A stretch of DNA of 64,000 bases from Escherichia coli. GTDB lineage: Bacteria; Pseudomonadota; Gammaproteobacteria; Enterobacterales; Enterobacteriaceae. Position numbers and translations under genes: made by a program. The notes under the pieces are model-generated. The model was not told where the DNA came from, did not search any database, and was given only the letters and a program-made list of their open reading frames with translations. This document shows positions 17,557 through 36,442 of this stretch, in pieces. The stretch lies in the NCBI RefSeq assembly GCF_041886205.1, contig NZ_CP169029.1. One strand, given 5' to 3'. Within the stretch, counting starts at the first letter, position 1, and each line of letters begins with the position of its first letter.

Positions 17557-17708
17557 GTTCGTGTCTCCTGAAAAAAATCGTTCTGAATAAGTGTAAACGC
17601 GCGATTGTACCATTACCAATAGCGCTTTTACTATGTTGTGACCTCGGTTCCGGGAAACAAACCTGGCCAGACATTGTTACACAACACTCCGGGTAATGCA
17701 TTCCAATA

Positions 17709-17724
17709 CTGTATATTCATTCAG
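17709..17724. promoter_or_regulatory. LexA box shared by divergent ssb and uvrA promoters
   Basis: CTGTATATTCATTCAG matches CTGT-N8-ACAG in the ssb/uvrA intergenic region. Confidence 0.8.
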
Positions 17725-17809
17725 GTCAATTTGTGTCATAATTAACCGTTTGTGATCGCCGGTAGCACCATGCCACCGGGCAAAAAAGCGTTTAATCCGG
17801 GAAAGGTGA

Positions 17810-28974: not shown

Positions 28975-30012
28975 TTAACGCTTATCCGCCACCAGTTTGA
29001 GCGCGTGTTCCAGCACATTAATGTCTGCACCCGCTTTATGGGCATTTTCACTTAAATAACGCCGCCACTGCCGCGCGCCAGGAATACCCTGGAACAAGCC
29101 CAACATATGCCGGGTAATATGACCGAGATACGTCCCCTGGCTGAGTTCACGCTCAATGTACGGATACATGGCGCGCACTACCGCCACCGGATCGGCATCG
29201 ATATCCGAGGAACCAAAGATCTCCCGGTCTACCGCCGCCAGAATACCCGGATTCTGATACGCCTCGCGCCCGACCATCACGCCATCCATATGTTGCAGGT
29301 GTGCTTTGGCCTCTTCCAGCGACTTGATACCACCGTTAATCGACATTGTCAGATGCGGAAAGTCACGCTTCAGTTGATACACACGCGGATAATCGAGCGG
29401 CGGGATCTCACGGTTTTCTTTCGGACTTAACCCCGAAAGCCAGGCTTTACGTGCATGGATGATGAACATCTCACACTCGCCTTTGCCGGAAACGGTGTTG
29501 ATGAAATCGCAGAGAAATTCATAGCTGTCCTGGTCGTCGATGCCAATACGCGTTTTCACCGTCACCGGAATCGACACCACATCGCGCATCGCTTTCACGC
29601 AGTCGGCAACCAGCTGCGCATTACCCATCAGACACGCACCAAACATGCCGTTCTGCACCCGGTCAGACGGGCAGCCGACATTCAGGTTGATCTCATCATA
29701 TCCACGCGCTTCTGCCAGCTTCGCACACTGCGCCAGCGCCGCCGGATCGCTACCGCCGAGTTGCAACGCTACCGGATGTTCTTCTTCACTATACGCCAGG
29801 TAATCACCTTTACCGTGAATAATCGCCCCTGTAGTTACCATTTCAGTATACAGCAACGTATTGCGGGAAAGCAGACGCAAGAAATAGCGGCAATGTCTGT
29901 CCGTCCAGTCGAGCATAGGAGCAATGCTAAACCGAGAATTCCAGTAAACACCAGTTTTTTCAGGCATCACGCTGGTTTGATTAATTTTTTGTGTTTCATG
30001 ATTATCGTGCAT
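28975..30012 (-). CDS. dusA: tRNA-dihydrouridine synthase A DusA; 5' end abuts the prophage integrase
   Basis: Dus-family TIM-barrel flavoenzyme; alternative start at 29967 would give 330 aa; the extreme 5' end is probably supplied by the integrated element. Confidence 0.9.
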
Positions 30013-30100: not shown

Positions 30101-31198
30101 ATGGCGTACTATAACATAGAGAAACGACTAAAATCCGATGGCACACCACGCTATCGCTGTAATGTGATTATCAAAGAAAAAGGTGTTATCACTTACAGGG
30201 AAAGCAAAACATTCCCTAAACATGCTCATGCCAAAACATGGGGCACACAGAAAGTGATGGAATTAGATCTATATGGCATTCCATCATCAAATGCAGTTGA
30301 CGGACTTACAGTCCGTGACTTACTACACAAATATTTAAATGACCCAAATGCCGGAGGTAAAGCAGGCCGTACTAAAAGATATGTGCTAGAACTGCTTATG
30401 GATAGTGACATCTCCGCGATCAAACTATCTGAACTGACAGAAAATGACGTAATTGAACATTGCAGGCTAAGAAACAACGCTGGCGCAGGTCCAGCAACAG
30501 TCAGCCACGATGTTAGTTATCTTGGTAGTGTTCTGGATGCGGCCAAACCTGTATACGGAATTAATTACACATCAAACCCGGCGAAAAGTGCTCGTCCATA
30601 TCTACTTAAACTTGGTTTGATTGGTAAATCAAACCGTCGTAATCGTAGACCAGCATCTGATGAACTGGACATGCTCATTGAAGGCCTTCAACAACGATCT
30701 ACTCATAAATGCTCAAAAATTCCGTTCGTTGATATCCTCAAATTTTCTGTGTGGTCCTGTATGCGAATCGGAGAAGTATGCCGGTTACGATGGGAAGATC
30801 TCGACCAGGAACAAAAATCTATACTCGTAAGAGACAGGAAAGATCCACGCAAAAAGGAAGGCAACCACATGAAAGTAGCCTTGCTTGGGGAAGCCTGGGA
30901 TATCGTCCAACGACAGCCCCAAAAATCGGAATTCATTTTTCCATATAACAGCACTTCTGTTACTGCGGGATTTCAGAGAGTAAGAAGCAAATTAGGTATT
31001 AAGGATCTGCGATACCATGATTTGCGTAGAGAAGGGGCAAGTCGCTTATTTGAGGCTGGTTTTAGTATTGAGGAAGTCGCCCAGGTTACAGGGCATCGTT
31101 CATTAAACGTGCTATGGCAGGTATATACCGAACTGTATCCGAAATCTTTACATAATCGTTTTGAAGAGCTCCAAAGGAGCAGAAATAAGATCCCTTGA
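30101..31198 (+). CDS. int: Tyrosine site-specific integrase (dusA-targeting type)
   Basis: 365-aa ORF with C-terminal catalytic region (HDLRREGASR ... LWQVYTELY); first phage gene next to the dusA 5' end. Confidence 0.8.
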   Translation: MAYYNIEKRLKSDGTPRYRCNVIIKEKGVITYRESKTFPKHAHAKTWGTQKVMELDLYGIPSSNAVDGLTVRDLLHKYLNDPNAGGKAGRTKRYVLELLMDSDISAIKLSELTENDVIEHCRLRNNAGAGPATVSHDVSYLGSVLDAAKPVYGINYTSNPAKSARPYLLKLGLIGKSNRRNRRPASDELDMLIEGLQQRSTHKCSKIPFVDILKFSVWSCMRIGEVCRLRWEDLDQEQKSILVRDRKDPRKKEGNHMKVALLGEAWDIVQRQPQKSEFIFPYNSTSVTAGFQRVRSKLGIKDLRYHDLRREGASRLFEAGFSIEEVAQVTGHRSLNVLWQVYTELYPKSLHNRFEELQRSRNKIP

Positions 31199-31200
31199 CA

Positions 31201-31244
31201 CTGTTTATCCATACAGTTAAAAATAATACTGTATACAAACACAG
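31201..31244. promoter_or_regulatory. Two tandem LexA (SOS) boxes upstream of the dinI-like gene
   Basis: ctgtttatccatacag (31201-31216) and ctgtatacaaacacag (31229-31244), both CTGT-N8-ACAG; a TTGACA hexamer sits at 31195-31200. Confidence 0.7.
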
Positions 31245-31259
31245 TATAGAGGGACTTTT

Positions 31260-31508
31260 ATGCGTATTGAAATCTGCATAGCCAAAGAAAAAATGACTAA
31301 AATGCCAACCGGTGCTGTGGATGCGTTAAAGGAAGAATTAACCCGACGCATCAGTAAGCGTTATGACGATGTAGAGGTGATCGTAAAAGCCACCAGCAAC
31401 GATGGGCTTTCAGTTACACCTACTGCAGATAAAGATTCAGCTAAAACTTTTGTGCAGGAAACTCTGAAAGATACCTGGGAGTCTGCTGACGAGTGGTTTG
31501 TTCACTAA
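31260..31508 (+). CDS. DinI-family protein (82 aa)
   Basis: [31 protein letters not shown]...[16 protein letters not shown] resembles DinI (MRIEV..., C-terminal ETWESADDWFV). Confidence 0.75.
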
Positions 31509-31511
31509 TTA

Positions 31512-31570
31512 GCACTATCGGAAGTTCACCAGCCAACCGCAGCACGTTTTTGCATACAACGTGCCTGCGG
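31512..31570. repeat. Repeat copy R1 (about 60 bp, hairpin plus T-run; acts as dinI-like terminator)
   Basis: gcactatcggaagttcaccagccaaccgcagcacgtttttgcatacaacgtgcctgcgg followed by ttttt; about 90% identical to 34181-34240. Confidence 0.7.
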
Positions 31571-31731
31571 TTTTTCGAGACTATTCTGACCGTCATACTT
31601 ACACATCAACTTAGCGCCCATCCAGAGAAATTATCTTTTTTGCATTCCGAAGATTCAAAGAGTTAGCCTAATTTTCCAGATAGTTTTCTCGACAAATCTG
31701 AGGTATTTTGGTTATCGATATAGTGCTTTGG

Positions 31732-32788
31732 GGCTTTGTTGAATAAATCAGATTTCGGGTAAGTCTCCCCCGTAGCGGGTTGTGTTTTCAGGCAATACGC
31801 ACGCTTTCAGGCATACCTGCTTTCGTCATTTTGTTCAGCGCTCGTACCAGGGCCATAGCCTCTGCAACCTGACCATCGTAGTCACGCAGCGTCAGTGAAC
31901 CCCCGAACAGCTGTTTTACCCGGTACATCGCCGTTTCCGCTATCGAGCGACGGTTGTAATCTGTTGTCCATTTCCACCGCGCATTACTCCCGGTCATTCG
32001 CTGATTAGCCACTGCACGGTTACGGTCTGCATATTCACCGGGCCAGTAACCCGCACCTTTTCGGGGAGGGATAAGCGCGCTGATTTTCTTACGCCGCAGT
32101 TCATCGTGACATAGCCGGGTATCGTAAGCGCCATCGGCGGCGGCTGACCTGATTTTCCGGTGGGTTTGCCGGATTAACCCGGGGAAGGCCTCTGAGTCCG
32201 TAACGTTGTTCAGCGACAGGTCAGCGCAGATGATTTCATGTGTTTTACTGTCAACGGCGAGATGCAGCTTACGCCAGATACGGCGGCGTTCCTGGCCATG
32301 CTTTTTGACTTTCCACTCGCCTTCACCGAAGACCTTCAGCCCGGTGGAATCAATTACCAGGTGTGCGATTTCACCCCGGGTGGGCGTTTTGAAACTGACA
32401 TTAACCGACTTTGCCCGCCTGCTGACACAGCTGTAATCCGGGCAGCGTAGCGGAACGTTCATCAGAGAAAAAATGGAATCAATAAAGCCCTGCGCAGCGC
32501 GCAGGGTCAGCCTGAATACGCGTTTAATGACCAGCACAGTCGTGATGGCAAGGTCAGAATAGCGCTGAGGTCTGCCTCGTGAAGAAGGTGTTGCTGACTC
32601 ATACCAGGCCTGAATAGCTTCATCATCCAGCCAGAAAGTTATGGAGCCACGGTTGATGAGGGCTTTATTGTAGGTGGGCCAGTTGGTGATTTTGAACTTT
32701 TGCTTTGCCACGGAACGGTCTGCGTTGTCGGGAAGATACGTGATCTGATCCTTCAACTCAGCAAAAGTTCGATTTATTCAACAAAGCC
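31732..32788. mobile_element. IS903-group insertion sequence (IS5 family), 1057 bp, apparently intact
   Basis: 18-bp terminal inverted repeats ggctttgttgaataaatc (31732-31749) and gatttattcaacaaagcc (32771-32788); flanked by 9-bp direct target duplication gtgctttgg (31723-31731 and 32789-32797). Confidence 0.9.
31788..32756 (-). CDS. IS903-group DDE transposase
   Basis: 322-aa ORF filling the IS; motif DSTGLKVFGEGEWKVKKHG typical of IS903/IS102 transposases; true start may be internal. Confidence 0.85.
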   Translation of the reverse strand: MKDQITYLPDNADRSVAKQKFKITNWPTYNKALINRGSITFWLDDEAIQAWYESATPSSRGRPQRYSDLAITTVLVIKRVFRLTLRAAQGFIDSIFSLMNVPLRCPDYSCVSRRAKSVNVSFKTPTRGEIAHLVIDSTGLKVFGEGEWKVKKHGQERRRIWRKLHLAVDSKTHEIICADLSLNNVTDSEAFPGLIRQTHRKIRSAAADGAYDTRLCHDELRRKKISALIPPRKGAGYWPGEYADRNRAVANQRMTGSNARWKWTTDYNRRSIAETAMYRVKQLFGGSLTLRDYDGQVAEAMALVRALNKMTKAGMPESVRIA

Positions 32789-32843
32789 GTGCTTTGGCTG
32801 AGGAACAGCATTAAATTCAACCATTTTATTCATAGGGATTAAA

Positions 32844-33848
32844 ATGCAAGATACAGACGTTTACGTATACATAGGCGATGTTCACCGCTCTGGTCATCAC
32901 GACATCACCAAAGCGATTAAAGAAAGAAAAACTAACCATGGTTTACAAAAAAATGTTCTTTTTTGCGTCGCTACCTATGGCGGTGATCCCAGCGCAGGAT
33001 ATAGAATTGGCCGCGCTTTGCAACACAACTATGAACACATCACCGTTCTAGTTGTTGGCCCTTGCAAAAGTGCTGGAACCTTGATGGCTGTCGCCGCTCA
33101 TAAGCTCGTGATTGGTGATATGGGTGAGCTTGGTCCTCTAGACATCCAACTTAAGAAAAATGATGAGATCGGCGAATTGAGCTCGGGCCTTGTTATCGCA
33201 ACGGCGATTGATGAAATAAAAGAGTGCGCTATTTCGACCTTTAGATCATACGTACTTGATATAAAGTACAGAAACCAAATTAGCACGAAGATGTCTGCAG
33301 ATATTGCTGCTAAGCTTACTGAAGCAATCATATCGCCGATGGCCTCACAGATAGACCCCATCAAACTCGGGGAGCATCAACGAGCAATGAACATAGCGCT
33401 TTCCTATGGGGAGCGTTTGAATAGTCACTCGAAAAATCTTAAGGAAAGCTCCTTAGGCAAGTTGATCGCTGGATATCCAGCCCATGGTTTTGTGATAGAC
33501 CGTAAAGAGGCGAGGGAACTATTCAACCATGTTGAGAGTCCTACAGACTTTGCAGCCAACCTGTACGAAGTTCTTGGTGAGATGATTTCGTCAGGCGAAA
33601 TCTCTATCTTCGACAAACCGGTGATTAAAGATTTAACTCCTAAAAAACAATATGAAACAACTAACGCAGAGGAAGATTCCCATGACAACAGCAGAATTCA
33701 GGAAGGAGATGAAATCTCTGACCAAAATTCAGGAAGAGCAGAACCGCCAAGGGATGAACCTGTCCAGGGAAGCGATGGAAAACATGCGGAAATTGAAGAA
33801 GAGGCTGGAACCTTACCAGCAGAGCAACCAGATGAAGGCACTCAGTGA
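32844..33848 (+). CDS. Orphan ClpP/crotonase-fold serine peptidase-like protein (S49/SDH-like) with acidic low-complexity C-terminal tail
   Basis: 334-aa AT-rich ORF with SD (aggga) 8 bp upstream; core ...VATYGGDPSAGYRIGRAL...VVGPCKSAGTLMAVAAHKLVIGDMGELGPLD resembles Clp-fold peptidases; last ~70 aa rich in E/D/Q; family assignment from memory only. Confidence 0.55.
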   Translation: MQDTDVYVYIGDVHRSGHHDITKAIKERKTNHGLQKNVLFCVATYGGDPSAGYRIGRALQHNYEHITVLVVGPCKSAGTLMAVAAHKLVIGDMGELGPLDIQLKKNDEIGELSSGLVIATAIDEIKECAISTFRSYVLDIKYRNQISTKMSADIAAKLTEAIISPMASQIDPIKLGEHQRAMNIALSYGERLNSHSKNLKESSLGKLIAGYPAHGFVIDRKEARELFNHVESPTDFAANLYEVLGEMISSGEISIFDKPVIKDLTPKKQYETTNAEEDSHDNSRIQEGDEISDQNSGRAEPPRDEPVQGSDGKHAEIEEEAGTLPAEQPDEGTQ

Positions 33849-33901: not shown

Positions 33902-34180
33902 CATCACTGGGCAGTCATCAAACTCCGCATTCCTAGCATCGTGATGATGTACGTGATTGCTCCGAATATTGAGTGTGAGTAATTGTAGCCACCACCATCA
34001 TCTGGCAGTGCTTCCGTTCTCCAGATTTATCAGGTGGGACTAAGGATGAGTACGATATCGCTTAATCCTGAAACTCCATTTCAGACAGGGACCCTATTAC
34101 AGACCGAAAGACCACAGATAAGTAGTTTGTTCATAAATTAATGCGTAGAATCAATAACGGCTGGAAATCATTCAATACTC

Positions 34181-34240
34181 GCACTATCGAAAGTTCGCCA
34201 GCCAGCCGCAGCACGTTCTTGCATACGACGTGGCTGCGGC
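34181..34240. repeat. Repeat copy R2 (about 60 bp) next to the invertase 3' end
   Basis: gcactatcgaaagttcgccagccagccgcagcacgttcttgcatacgacgtggctgcgg; 54/60 identical to R1; contains 13-bp stem agccgcagcacgt / acgtg(g)ctgcggct. Confidence 0.7.
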
Positions 34241-34280
34241 TTCCAACATTAGACAAATAACTCTTTAAATTGCTTTTAAA

Positions 34281-34844
34281 TTATTTCGTTTGAATGCCAG
34301 TAACAGGAAATCGTTTATATAGGGTTGATAGCCCAACGTTATAGATACGTGCAACATAACGCCGTGATTTCCCTGCCGCTATGAGCGCTCCCATCTGTTG
34401 CCACTGCTCGTCGCTAAACTTCGGTCTACGCCCACCAATCCGGCCTTTGGATCTGGCAATAGCCAAACCAGCTAAAGTTCGCTCGCTATTCAAATCAGAT
34501 TCATACTGCGCAGCAGAAAGAATATTACGGAAATTATAGCGACCACTTGCTGTTTTCAGGTCTACACCATCTGTAATACTCCGAAAATTAACGCCTTTTT
34601 CGTGCAGATTTTGAAACATCAATAGCGCATGTAGCACATTTCTCCCTATCCGATCTAGCTTCCAGACAATCAACTCATCTCCACTTTTCATCACCGAAAT
34701 TAATTCCTTTAACACAGGGCGATTAGCTGTTCTGCCACTGGCATATTCTTCATAAATTCGCTCACAGCCAGCTGACTCAAGTGCAAGACGTTGCAACTCT
34801 GTATCCTGATGATTTGTTGATACACGAACATACCCGTAAATCAT
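34281..34844 (-). CDS. Serine DNA invertase (Pin/Gin/Hin/Cin family)
   Basis: N-terminus MIYGYVRVSTNHQDTELQ with catalytic Ser, resolvase domain, C-terminal HTH (GLSTLYKRF); adjacent to invertible tail-fibre segment. Confidence 0.9.
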   Translation of the reverse strand: MIYGYVRVSTNHQDTELQRLALESAGCERIYEEYASGRTANRPVLKELISVMKSGDELIVWKLDRIGRNVLHALLMFQNLHEKGVNFRSITDGVDLKTASGRYNFRNILSAAQYESDLNSERTLAGLAIARSKGRIGGRRPKFSDEQWQQMGALIAAGKSRRYVARIYNVGLSTLYKRFPVTGIQTK

Positions 34845-34903
34845 GAGTGCTTCTCCTGTTGTAAAAACAGGAGAAGAGGCGAAATATCACCTGATTCAGA
34901 AAA

Positions 34904-34929
34904 ATATTTGAAAGGTTGGTTTGGGAGAA
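34904..34929. promoter_or_regulatory. Left crossover site of the invertible tail-fibre segment
   Basis: Contains ttggtttgggagaag (34916-34930), inverted copy of cttctcccaaaccaa at 36813-36827; half-site resembles gix half TTATCCAAAACC. Confidence 0.65.
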
Positions 34930-35415
34930 GGCTCAGCGTTACCCGTTGGTGTGCCTGTTCCGTGGCCTTCAGCCACACCACCAACAGGCTGGCTGAAATG
35001 CAACGGTGCACCTTTTTCTGCCGAAGAGTACCCAAAACTGGCAAAGGCTTACCCAAAGTTAAAATTACCGGATTTGCGCGGTGAGTTTATTCGCGGGTGG
35101 GATGATGGGCGAGGTGTTGATTCCGCGAGACTGCTGCTTTCAAGTCAGGCAGCATCTATCCTTGAACATAACCATGAAATGCATGGATGGACAGGGAACC
35201 CACTCATGGCTAGAGATGTTGGTGAATTAGGTACATCATCCGTATTTGCGGTGCAGTTGAGCATTGGCGATGGCGGGTTATTGTATTCGTGGAAGGATGG
35301 GAGTGGAACAACAAATGACAGTAAACGAATGGATAGAACAAATCATGTCAGTTCCGGCGCCGGTGATGGTAGCCCGCGAAACATTGCATTTAACTACATT
35401 GTGAGGGCTGCATAA
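34921..35415 (+). CDS. Alternative (currently unexpressed) tail-fibre C-terminal variable domain
   Basis: Frame opens exactly at the left crossover site with no ATG (ORF-track M is TTG); encodes tail-collar-like receptor-binding domain. Confidence 0.7.
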   Translation: MGEGSALPVGVPVPWPSATPPTGWLKCNGAPFSAEEYPKLAKAYPKLKLPDLRGEFIRGWDDGRGVDSARLLLSSQAASILEHNHEMHGWTGNPLMARDVGELGTSSVFAVQLSIGDGGLLYSWKDGSGTTNDSKRMDRTNHVSSGAGDGSPRNIAFNYIVRAA

Positions 35416-36018
35416 ATGGAACAGGCTATTTTGGGAAAAGACGGTTACGCTTTAAATGATGGGGAAATCATCGTACATAACTATGATGGCGAAACGCGGG
35501 AATATATTTCTACATCAACTGAATATCTCGCTGTCGGAGTCGGTATCCCGGCATGTTCCTGTCTGGATGCACCAGGTACACATAAAGCTGGTTATGCAAT
35601 CTGTCGCTCTGTAGATTTAAATTCATGGGAATATGTGCCAGACCATCGCGGTGAAACGGTCTATAGCACCAAAACAGGAGAATCAAAAGAAATCACCGCT
35701 CCGGGTGATTACCCTGAAAATACAACCACTATCGCCCCATTAACGCCATACGATAAATGGGATGGTGAGAAATGGGTGACCGATACTGAGGCACAGCATA
35801 GCGCCGCAGTAGACGCGGCAGAAGCACAGCGCCAGTCACTGATTGATGCTGCAATGGCTTCCATTAGTCTGATTCAACTGAAATTGCAGGCCGGACGTAA
35901 ACTGACGCAGGCAGAAACAACCAGACTTAACGCTGTGCTGGATTACATTGACGCGGTGACGGCAACAGATACCAGCACCGCGCCGGATGTCATCTGGCCT
36001 GAACTGCCGGAGGCGTAG
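35416..36018 (+). CDS. Tail-fibre assembly chaperone (Tfa) for the alternative fibre
   Basis: 200 aa with conserved Tfa C-terminus LNAVLDYIDAVTATDTSTAPDVIWPELP. Confidence 0.75.
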   Translation: MEQAILGKDGYALNDGEIIVHNYDGETREYISTSTEYLAVGVGIPACSCLDAPGTHKAGYAICRSVDLNSWEYVPDHRGETVYSTKTGESKEITAPGDYPENTTTIAPLTPYDKWDGEKWVTDTEAQHSAAVDAAEAQRQSLIDAAMASISLIQLKLQAGRKLTQAETTRLNAVLDYIDAVTATDTSTAPDVIWPELPEA

Positions 36019-36442
36019 GCCATTCAATATCTGGCGCACTGGAGGTATCAACCAGCTCCAGTGCATCCAGATAATCCAGCCACAAATTATATTGCGCCAG
36101 TTCCTCACCTTTCAGACGACCAATAGCGGCTTTACCGGGCCATTGCTTACTGTTCATGTATTCGTTGGCCTGGTTAATTAGTAGCTGTCTTTCTGATTCA
36201 GTAATTTCAATAAGCTCTTCATGCGTGGGTGGAGGAATATCTGCCCACGCAGGCAGCCCATCATCTCCGGCAATACGGATTTTTCCTTGTGGCGGTTCAG
36301 CCATAAACTCACTGATAATATTTTGATTTACTTCCTTAGCGTCTGATAAATCCCATCCCTCTGATTTATATTTATCAATCATATCCACAGGGAAAAAAGC
36401 ATTATGCCTTGCGCTATAAACATATTCGTTCATATAAATCAC
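35990..36442 (-). CDS. Tail-fibre assembly chaperone (Tfa) for the currently expressed fibre
   Basis: 150 aa, C-terminus LWLDYLDALELVDTSSAPDIEWPTPP; converges on the other tfa. Confidence 0.75.
   Translation of the reverse strand: MIYMNEYVYSARHNAFFPVDMIDKYKSEGWDLSDAKEVNQNIISEFMAEPPQGKIRIAGDDGLPAWADIPPPTHEELIEITESERQLLINQANEYMNSKQWPGKAAIGRLKGEELAQYNLWLDYLDALELVDTSSAPDIEWPTPPAVQAR

Follow-up and report, generated by a model that had tools for sequence, protein, structure and literature searches.

Within a prophage on the Escherichia coli chromosome, a gene for an 82-amino-acid (aa) DinI-like protein is preceded by two tandem LexA boxes. It lies in a stretch of 64 kb from NZ_CP169029.1 (from here: the window, to which all coordinates refer). 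We propose, as a probable though by no means certain reading, that promoter, gene and terminator form a self-contained, SOS-controlled moron at the attachment-site end of a temperate phage that is integrated in dusA, the product of which is a DinI paralogue that would sit in the RecA groove and probably act as a brake on the cleavage of CI and UmuD. As judged from the sequence, control of this cassette by LexA is very probable. A previous inspection of the DNA letters without database searches (the sequence-only reading) had pointed to two CTGT-N8-ACAG motifs directly upstream of the open reading frame (ORF), and both are present.

All elements of the cassette are located on the plus strand. 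A promoter scan identified the perfect −35 hexamer TTGACA (31195–31200), which forms the left edge of the mobile unit. LexA box 1, CACTGTTTATCCATACAGTT (31199–31218; core CTGT-N8-ACAG at 31201–31216), fills the spacer of 18 nt between this hexamer and the −10 hexamer AAAAAT (31219–31224). TAAAAA (31218–31223) is an alternative −10 element with a spacer of 17 nt. Together, the −35 and −10 elements match the consensus at 10 of 12 positions. LexA box 2, TACTGTATACAAACACAGTA (31227–31246; core 31229–31244), lies over the predicted transcription start, presumably near 31231, and ends 13 nt 5′ of the ATG; it differs from the palindromic consensus TACTGTATATATATACAGTA at three positions, all of them central. 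Hence, the operator overlaps the predicted core promoter, with one box in its spacer and the other over +1. The boxes bracket the −10 element at a centre-to-centre distance of 28 bp, corresponding to ~2.7 helical turns, which places them on different faces of the helix. The Shine-Dalgarno sequence AGAGGGA (31248–31254), read off the sequence, is 5 nt away from the ATG of the dinI-like coding sequence (31260–31508, 82 aa), which was assigned by Pfam, PDB and structure matches.

The right end of the cassette is an intrinsic-terminator-like hairpin (31535–31575; stem 31535–31548/31558–31572, T run 31571–31575), just outside the span of 31195–31508 originally given. A simple automatic terminator scan did not call this hairpin; it was found instead by RNA folding (−22.3 kcal/mol, z = −2.8). 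An Rfam search in and near the cassette and its 62-nt downstream element yielded nothing near threshold, the best match being CssrB, whose 22 bits fall below the gathering score of 76. The only ORF that follows dinI (31493–31666) was considered as a gene and rejected, as it extends across the terminator and lacks conservation as a gene. Likewise rejected was a hidden downstream antirepressor as in the Gifsy prophages, for which the uninterrupted arrangements offer neither room nor a co-directional ORF. On the minus strand, a short ORF (31441–31596) crosses the terminator hairpin; PGAP calls its equivalents 'capsid protein' in many E. coli genomes (e.g. L002, 23066–23173), a label that is almost certainly an annotation artefact.

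The motif CTGT-N8-ACAG occurs exactly twice in the 64 kb, both times in the cassette promoter. This raw count is weak evidence, since 0.69 occurrences are expected and two or more were reached in 16 of 100 shuffles. Scoring with a LexA matrix was more discriminating: box 2 ranked highest in the window with 23.2 bits, followed by box 1 with 21.6 bits and by the authentic uvrA/ssb operator TACTGTATATTCATTCAGGT (17707–17726) with 17.6 bits. The latter had been held out of the training and served as an internal positive control, and it does not fit the strict CTGT-N8-ACAG pattern. The next-best site in the window reached 10.7 bits, and the top score over 100 dinucleotide shuffles was 17.6 bits, below both boxes. 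The significance of the boxes thus derives from their matrix scores, the 28-bp spacing, their position in a promoter and their conservation in diverged homologues. On these grounds a chance origin was ruled out, even though the raw count is not significant, and the assignment of the motifs as LexA boxes by the sequence-only reading appears justified. No further LexA site above 10.7 bits was detected in the prophage part of the window, e.g. near cI, the antirepressor-like gene or Q, which makes dinI the sole predicted LexA target of the prophage portion within the window.

The conservation of the promoter is uneven. While 25 of 25 columns of the flank upstream of the −35 vary between contexts, the promoter alignment contains one variable column among the six of the −35 hexamer and two among the ten of the −10 region; the CTGT/ACAG cores of both boxes vary at 2 of 16 positions and their N8 spacers at 7 of 16. 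In ten diverged sequences none of the eight core positions of box 2 is variable, substitutions avoid the CTG/CAG cores, and the sequence TAAAAAT is invariant in all ten two-box sequences of the alignment. The box centres are located 51 and 23 nt before the ATG in ten two-box members with 58–99% protein identity; the distance is 52 in two of these ten, each with one extra base. A scan of IMG/VR for the exact pattern of the double-box promoter returned 105 loci. Every one of them precedes this DinI clade (105/105), and 96 encode an intact 82-aa DinI-like protein. The −35 element is TTGACA in 83 of these copies and TTGATA in 10. In ~80 of the 105 loci the 3′ end of a dusA-type integrase gene is found upstream, and the rest is distributed over four or five other contexts.

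Matches to the cassette exist in 1,804 of 5,426 complete E. coli genomes, extending over at least 80% of its length in 1,671, with up to 7 matching places per genome. In the phage collection, 98 records match by DNA and 133 by protein; phages carrying the cassette include mEp460, cdtI, CP-1639, YYZ-2008, BP-4795, P-EibC and many Stx1/Stx2c phages. In contexts without the dusA-type integrase, the homology starts at 31193–31195, that is, at the −35, and runs through dinI; in several of these phages it extends to the terminator element, giving a right edge at ~31576. The 62-nt element 31512–31573 accompanies dinI in mEp460, cdtI, CP-1639 and YYZ-2008. The flanking genes differ among these four phages and the window, and at least five contexts share the cassette edges. 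As it has its own promoter and terminator and has moved as a block, the cassette can be regarded as a phage moron, and its host-type promoter and operators predict expression from the repressed prophage, independent of the lytic programme. The sequence-only reading had treated the arrangement as specific to the adjacent integrase; this part did not hold, because the cassette is a mobile unit that occurs in several other genomic contexts. An origin of the repeats related to the integrase or its attachment (att) site was ruled out as well, since dinI is accompanied by the paired sites also where this integrase is absent.

A second phage DinI clade, 77 aa in length, is found in the nin region of Gifsy-1, mEp237, SEN34 and Klebsiella and Aeromonas phages, and has a single LexA box ~28 nt before the ATG. 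Two variants of the cassette itself were also observed. In BP-4795 (L010, 248–1908), the gene after the two-box dinI, in the same orientation, is ORF84 for a 'putative avirulence protein' (652–1908); the boxes are weaker there, with 15 bits each, and read-through from the LexA-controlled promoter could couple ORF84 expression to SOS. In the Stx2a phages of the set (e.g. Stx2a_JNE121036, L011, 1501–2993) dinI is split, with its body and 3′ end ~1.26 kb apart. Promoter and boxes did not align in these phages, and the copy is disrupted, unlike in the Stx1/Stx2c phages.

The assignment of the 82-aa ORF as DinI-like was confirmed by several searches. It matches PF06183 (Pfam DinI) with an i-Evalue of 7.5e-19 over model positions 1–63 of 63 and PHROG 189 ('RecA filament binding protein DinI') with 1.8e-30, and aligns end to end with E. 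coli DinI (PDB 1GHH/7YWA; 4e-13). The PGAP name, 'DinI-like family protein', is judged correct. An AlphaFold2 model (pLDDT 85.6) had as its top Foldseek matches 7YWA_A, DinI in the RecA complex, and 1GHH, the nuclear magnetic resonance structure, with TM scores of 0.81–0.85 and root mean square deviations of 2.0–2.1 Å; all other structures had E > 0.03. According to the model, the protein would retain the DinI alpha/beta fold with its C-terminal helix. Gao et al. (2023) showed that the pocket formed by L13, L21, W71, W77 and F78 of DinI receives F203 of RecA, and that an acidic patch of E24, E69 and D76 faces K232, R243 and K245 of RecA (PMC9926225). The equivalents in the window protein are M15, L23, W73, W79 and F80, and E26, D71 and E78. 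Five of these eight RecA-contact positions are identical and three conservatively replaced. Codon 54 (31419–31421) encodes Pro in the window protein and Arg (SVTRTAD) in nearly all of the more than 100 other copies; Pro54 occurs otherwise only in strain GXU-23-25-310. This position is in the loop that follows strand three, at a distance from the residues contacting RecA.

The prophage starts directly beyond the 5′ end of dusA (28975–30012, minus strand). The first prophage gene encodes a dusA-associated tyrosine integrase of 365 aa (30101–31198, plus strand; from the ORF list, PHROG integrase matches and near-identical RefSeq loci). This position next to the dusA 5′ end is common to many E. 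coli genomes in RefSeq and fits the description of the dusA-associated integrase family by Farrugia et al. 2015 (PMC4482086). The remainder of the window up to dusA is E. coli chromosome, with the genes from yjcE via ssb, uvrA, dnaB and qorA to dusA matching RefSeq genomes gene for gene. The statement that the boxes directly follow the integrase stop was accurate: the integrase gene ends at 31198, and its TGA (31196–31198) falls within the −35 hexamer of the cassette. The dinI cassette thus supplies the stop codon through its −35 (CC/TC-TTGACA), a junction retained in ~80 IMG/VR copies, suggesting that integrase gene and dinI now move as one block. In mEp460, the pair is combined with a siphovirus tail module of lambda-like type, in the window and in strain CX21 with a contractile-tail, HK97-head module.

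The prophage context stated by the sequence-only reading was also verified. From the integrase gene at dusA, the gene order proceeds through tail, head, terminase, lysis, Q and replication genes to cII and cI. The CI repressor (63240–63893, plus strand) combines a helix-turn-helix domain with an S24 autopeptidase domain (PHROG 4, LexA/UmuD-type matches); no other regulator in the window is transcribed divergently. It is accompanied by cII-like, O-like replication, Q-like, holin, terminase, capsid and tail genes. The repressor aligns with lambda CI (3BDN; 7e-25) at VQAG (cleavage site), GDSM (serine) and KKF (lysine), and is thus predicted to be competent for cleavage, which makes it a candidate competitor for the RecA filament groove. 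With such a cleavable lambda-CI homologue, the prophage should be induced by RecA-stimulated CI autocleavage and not by an antirepressor.

In the mechanism that we propose, LexA dimers on the −35/−10 spacer and on the start site would keep the promoter shut in the unstressed lysogen, as sequence and conservation suggest. Upon DNA damage, RecA filaments on single-stranded DNA would trigger LexA self-cleavage and the promoter would be released. Because both operators are close to the consensus and both must be vacated, we infer that opening takes place only under strong or sustained SOS, probably late or in a dose-dependent manner. The DinI-like product would then bind within the RecA filament's groove, consistent with its predicted fold and with the contact positions, all eight of which are identical or conservatively substituted. 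The features of the RecA groove that DinI uses also serve lambda CI, and UmuD likewise makes use of the L2 loop and the K232/R243/K245 patch (PMC9926225). Since these groove elements are common to UmuD and lambda-type CI, modulation of the RecA co-protease activity towards slow, late substrates is the most likely effect, and competition with CI and UmuD would be its simplest form. More speculatively, and this includes the sign of the effect, the filament might be stabilised while cleavage of the phage's own lambda-CI-like repressor and of UmuD is damped or delayed. Judged from sequence and structure model, interference with RecA-stimulated CI cleavage, proposed by the sequence-only reading as a tuning of CI autocleavage during induction, is plausible, though not new in kind, because the DinI fold and contacts appear to be kept, the prophage CI has the VQAG site and the Ser/Lys dyad, and the groove features are common to both ligands.

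Several points weigh against this proposal. The −10 element is weak, with 4 of 6 matches, and the matrix behind the LexA scores, assembled from operators of E. coli K-12, is a scoring device only. With 73 bits, the protein stays below the 111-bit cut-off of the NCBIfam DinI equivalog NF007893, and may therefore be a functionally diverged paralogue. Reports on E. coli DinI describe a stabiliser of the filament but also, when present in excess, an inhibitor, so that the sign of an effect on CI cleavage is unpredictable. The sources that we searched contained no binding, expression or phenotype data for the 82-aa clade. Finally, induction reporters responded no differently when dinI had been removed from Gifsy-1 and from Gifsy-3 by non-polar deletion (PMC3121763). 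As the Gifsy repressors are not cleaved (PMC3121763), this result is no fair test for a phage that depends on CI cleavage.

The effect on the phage switch could also have the opposite sign. The phage DinI would then stabilise RecA filaments and prolong SOS, so that the lysogen becomes committed to cleaving CI and growing lytically. The conserved RecA-contact residues and the reliance of the prophage on a cleavable CI agree with such an accelerating role, as does the finding that RecA filaments become longer and more stable with DinI, which is said to assist their formation (PMC9926225). However, DinI takes up groove elements that CI needs, so that stoichiometric binding should compete with CI, and tandem near-consensus operators argue for late and not for early expression; we regard this alternative as unlikely. 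A different possibility is lysogenic conversion to the benefit of the host, in which additional DinI limits UmuD processing and SOS mutagenesis or toxicity, e.g. under quinolones, with little effect on the phage switch. The location of the moron beside att, its own promoter, predicted to operate in the lysogen, and the presence of the cassette in about a third of the complete E. coli genomes, in up to 7 places each, would be in line with such a function, and so would the lack of an induction phenotype of the Gifsy dinI deletions (PMC3121763). In addition, a 'DinI-like' prophage gene, possibly of the 82-aa clade, is among the gene families for which an association with subsequent quinolone-resistance mutations was seen (bioRxiv 10.1101/2023.06.20.545734). 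The host, however, already possesses a strongly induced chromosomal dinI. We consider host benefit as the main function to be a minority possibility, though one to be taken seriously.

The unit could furthermore be a LexA-controlled antirepressor module or its remnant, comparable to 186 Tum or Gifsy dinI-gfoA, and act on a phage repressor instead of RecA. This would require a different anatomy: the unit is monocistronic with a terminator at 31535–31575, the next gene in uninterrupted arrangements is ~100 bp away on the opposite strand, and the product is a bare DinI domain with conserved RecA contacts. Moreover, a cleavable CI needs no antirepressor, and the clade linked to antirepressors is the 77-aa one of the nin region and not the 82-aa clade. 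The idea is very improbable and largely refuted by the anatomy. The inverted repeats, in turn, might not be LexA operators at all, and instead be chance palindromes or binding sites for integrase or excision functions at the end of the integrase gene. They abut that gene, and two CTGT-N8-ACAG motifs arise in 64 kb in 16% of shuffles; yet they score higher than any of the shuffles and than the authentic uvrA/ssb operator, the paired sites accompany dinI beside other genes in cdtI, CP-1639 (next to ssrA), YYZ-2008 and P-EibC, and substitutions spare the CTG/CAG cores. The comparative data refute this explanation as far as sequence can go, and we give it next to no weight.

A moron under LexA control whose DinI-like product probably slows CI and UmuD cleavage thus remains the preferred reading. 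If it alters the RecA co-protease, a gene carried by about one third of the complete E. coli genomes would affect prophage induction, including that of Shiga-toxin and cdt phages, and also the level of SOS mutagenesis and the fate of lysogens under quinolones. A bolder version, which we hold to be doubtful, sees in the cassette a phage-owned 'induction governor' that responds to high or persistent SOS only, sets the induction threshold of its own prophage and acts on other prophages. The RecA groove would be loaded just as CI-type repressors start being cleaved, and since the protein would act in trans on the RecA of the host, other RecA-dependent prophages in a polylysogen should be affected too. 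Such a device would serve as a currency in the competition between prophages, and would help to determine how Stx phages are induced and how much SOS mutagenesis antibiotics cause.

Downstream of the cassette, the window differs from other copies. An IS903-like (IS5-family) element of 1,057 bp (31732–32788) is inserted 220 bp 3′ of dinI. It is bounded by imperfect terminal inverted repeats of 33 bp and a perfect 9-bp target duplication, GTGCTTTGG (31723–31731 and 32789–32797), and carries a transposase ORF of 322 aa on the minus strand (31788–32756). The insertion is recent, because strain GXU-23-25-310, whose locus is 99.8% identical apart from this, does not have the element. A second cargo gene follows at 32844–33848, encoding a 334-aa 'SDH family Clp-fold serine proteinase' (PHROG 21683) with an acidic low-complexity C-terminus. 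A PADLOC search with DinI and this neighbouring protease yielded no match to defence systems. Further on, a degenerate second copy of the dinI 3′ end and the terminator element is located at 34121–34242 on the plus strand, recognised by the direct repeats D1 (62 nt, 89%) and D5 (20 nt, 85%). The repeat copies (31512–31573 and 34121–34242) are 2.6 kb apart and bracket the IS903-like element and the protease gene, and in strain CX21 dinI is directly followed by pin. This arrangement suggests that the protease module arrived by insertion or recombination, with the dinI terminator region as the joint. In the region 34281–36442, a gene for a Pin/Gin-type serine invertase (34281–34844, minus strand) adjoins oppositely oriented ORFs for tail-fibre and tail-fibre-assembly proteins, presumably an invertible host-range segment as annotated in CX21.

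The closest known system outside phages is the chromosomal DinI of E. coli (b1061; 1GHH, 7YWA). It belongs to the same family, fold and length class and is LexA-controlled, as is predicted for the window copy. The two proteins have the C-terminal acidic/aromatic helix and all RecA-contact positions in common, at an identity of ~42–49% depending on the alignment, and the window protein has small insertions, EK after K9 and SA near residue 61. The regulatory regions are distinct. The chromosomal dinI has a single LexA box over the −10 of an unrelated promoter, whereas the mobile phage copy has two near-consensus boxes, and no homology between both promoters was found beyond the LexA box itself.

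Among phages, mEp460 gp21, cdtI orf30, CP-1639 dinI and the copies in YYZ-2008 and Stx1/Stx2c phages have 91–96% nucleotide identity to the window over promoter, boxes and gene. mEp460 also possesses the same integrase, and its authors annotated the same promoter; the LexA boxes are unannotated in the examined phage records. The window copy deviates from the other phage copies by ~40 bp missing between the stop codon and the terminator and by the IS903-like element and the protease gene downstream. The dinI-gfoA/gftA-irsA operon of Gifsy-1, -2 and -3 offers a functional parallel, with a prophage DinI homologue right behind a LexA box, a terminator upstream and induction by DNA damage (PMC3121763). 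LexA controls these homologues, and their levels rise upon treatment with mitomycin C (Lemire et al. 2011, PMC3121763); nalidixic acid induced them 4.6- to 23-fold in transcriptomics with heterology indices (PMC8072944). Nevertheless, Gifsy dinI belongs to the different 77-aa clade with ~42% identity, is situated in the nin region with one box at ~−28 and heads an antirepressor operon. LexA-controlled phage genes with DinI-like sequence are also known from the tum region of 186, PSP3 and Fels-2. DinI-like sequence was noted in 186 Tum and in Fels-2 (PMC3121763); in 186 Tum it is fused to an antirepressor half, in contrast to the bare DinI domain encoded in the window. A dinI-like gene of PhiKO2 is cited as LexA-regulated in PMC7556043 and likewise lies opposite tail-fibre genes.

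SOS promoters with more than one LexA box include those of lexA, recN and Salmonella dinI (PMC8072944). The window cassette compares with these multi-operator promoters in that both of its boxes are strong, lie off the same helix face and bracket the −10. LexA control of prophage dinI genes is already established and the cassette has been deposited and annotated as DinI-like before, so that little is added by the finding as a sequence. In the literature searched there was no paper on the two operators of the 82-aa clade, on the moron boundaries or on the linkage to dusA-type integrases, and the conserved tandem-box architecture of this clade seems not to have been described previously. What the cassette contributes to the known LexA-controlled dinI systems is modest: a conserved two-operator architecture, exact moron boundaries and a link to a cleavable CI.

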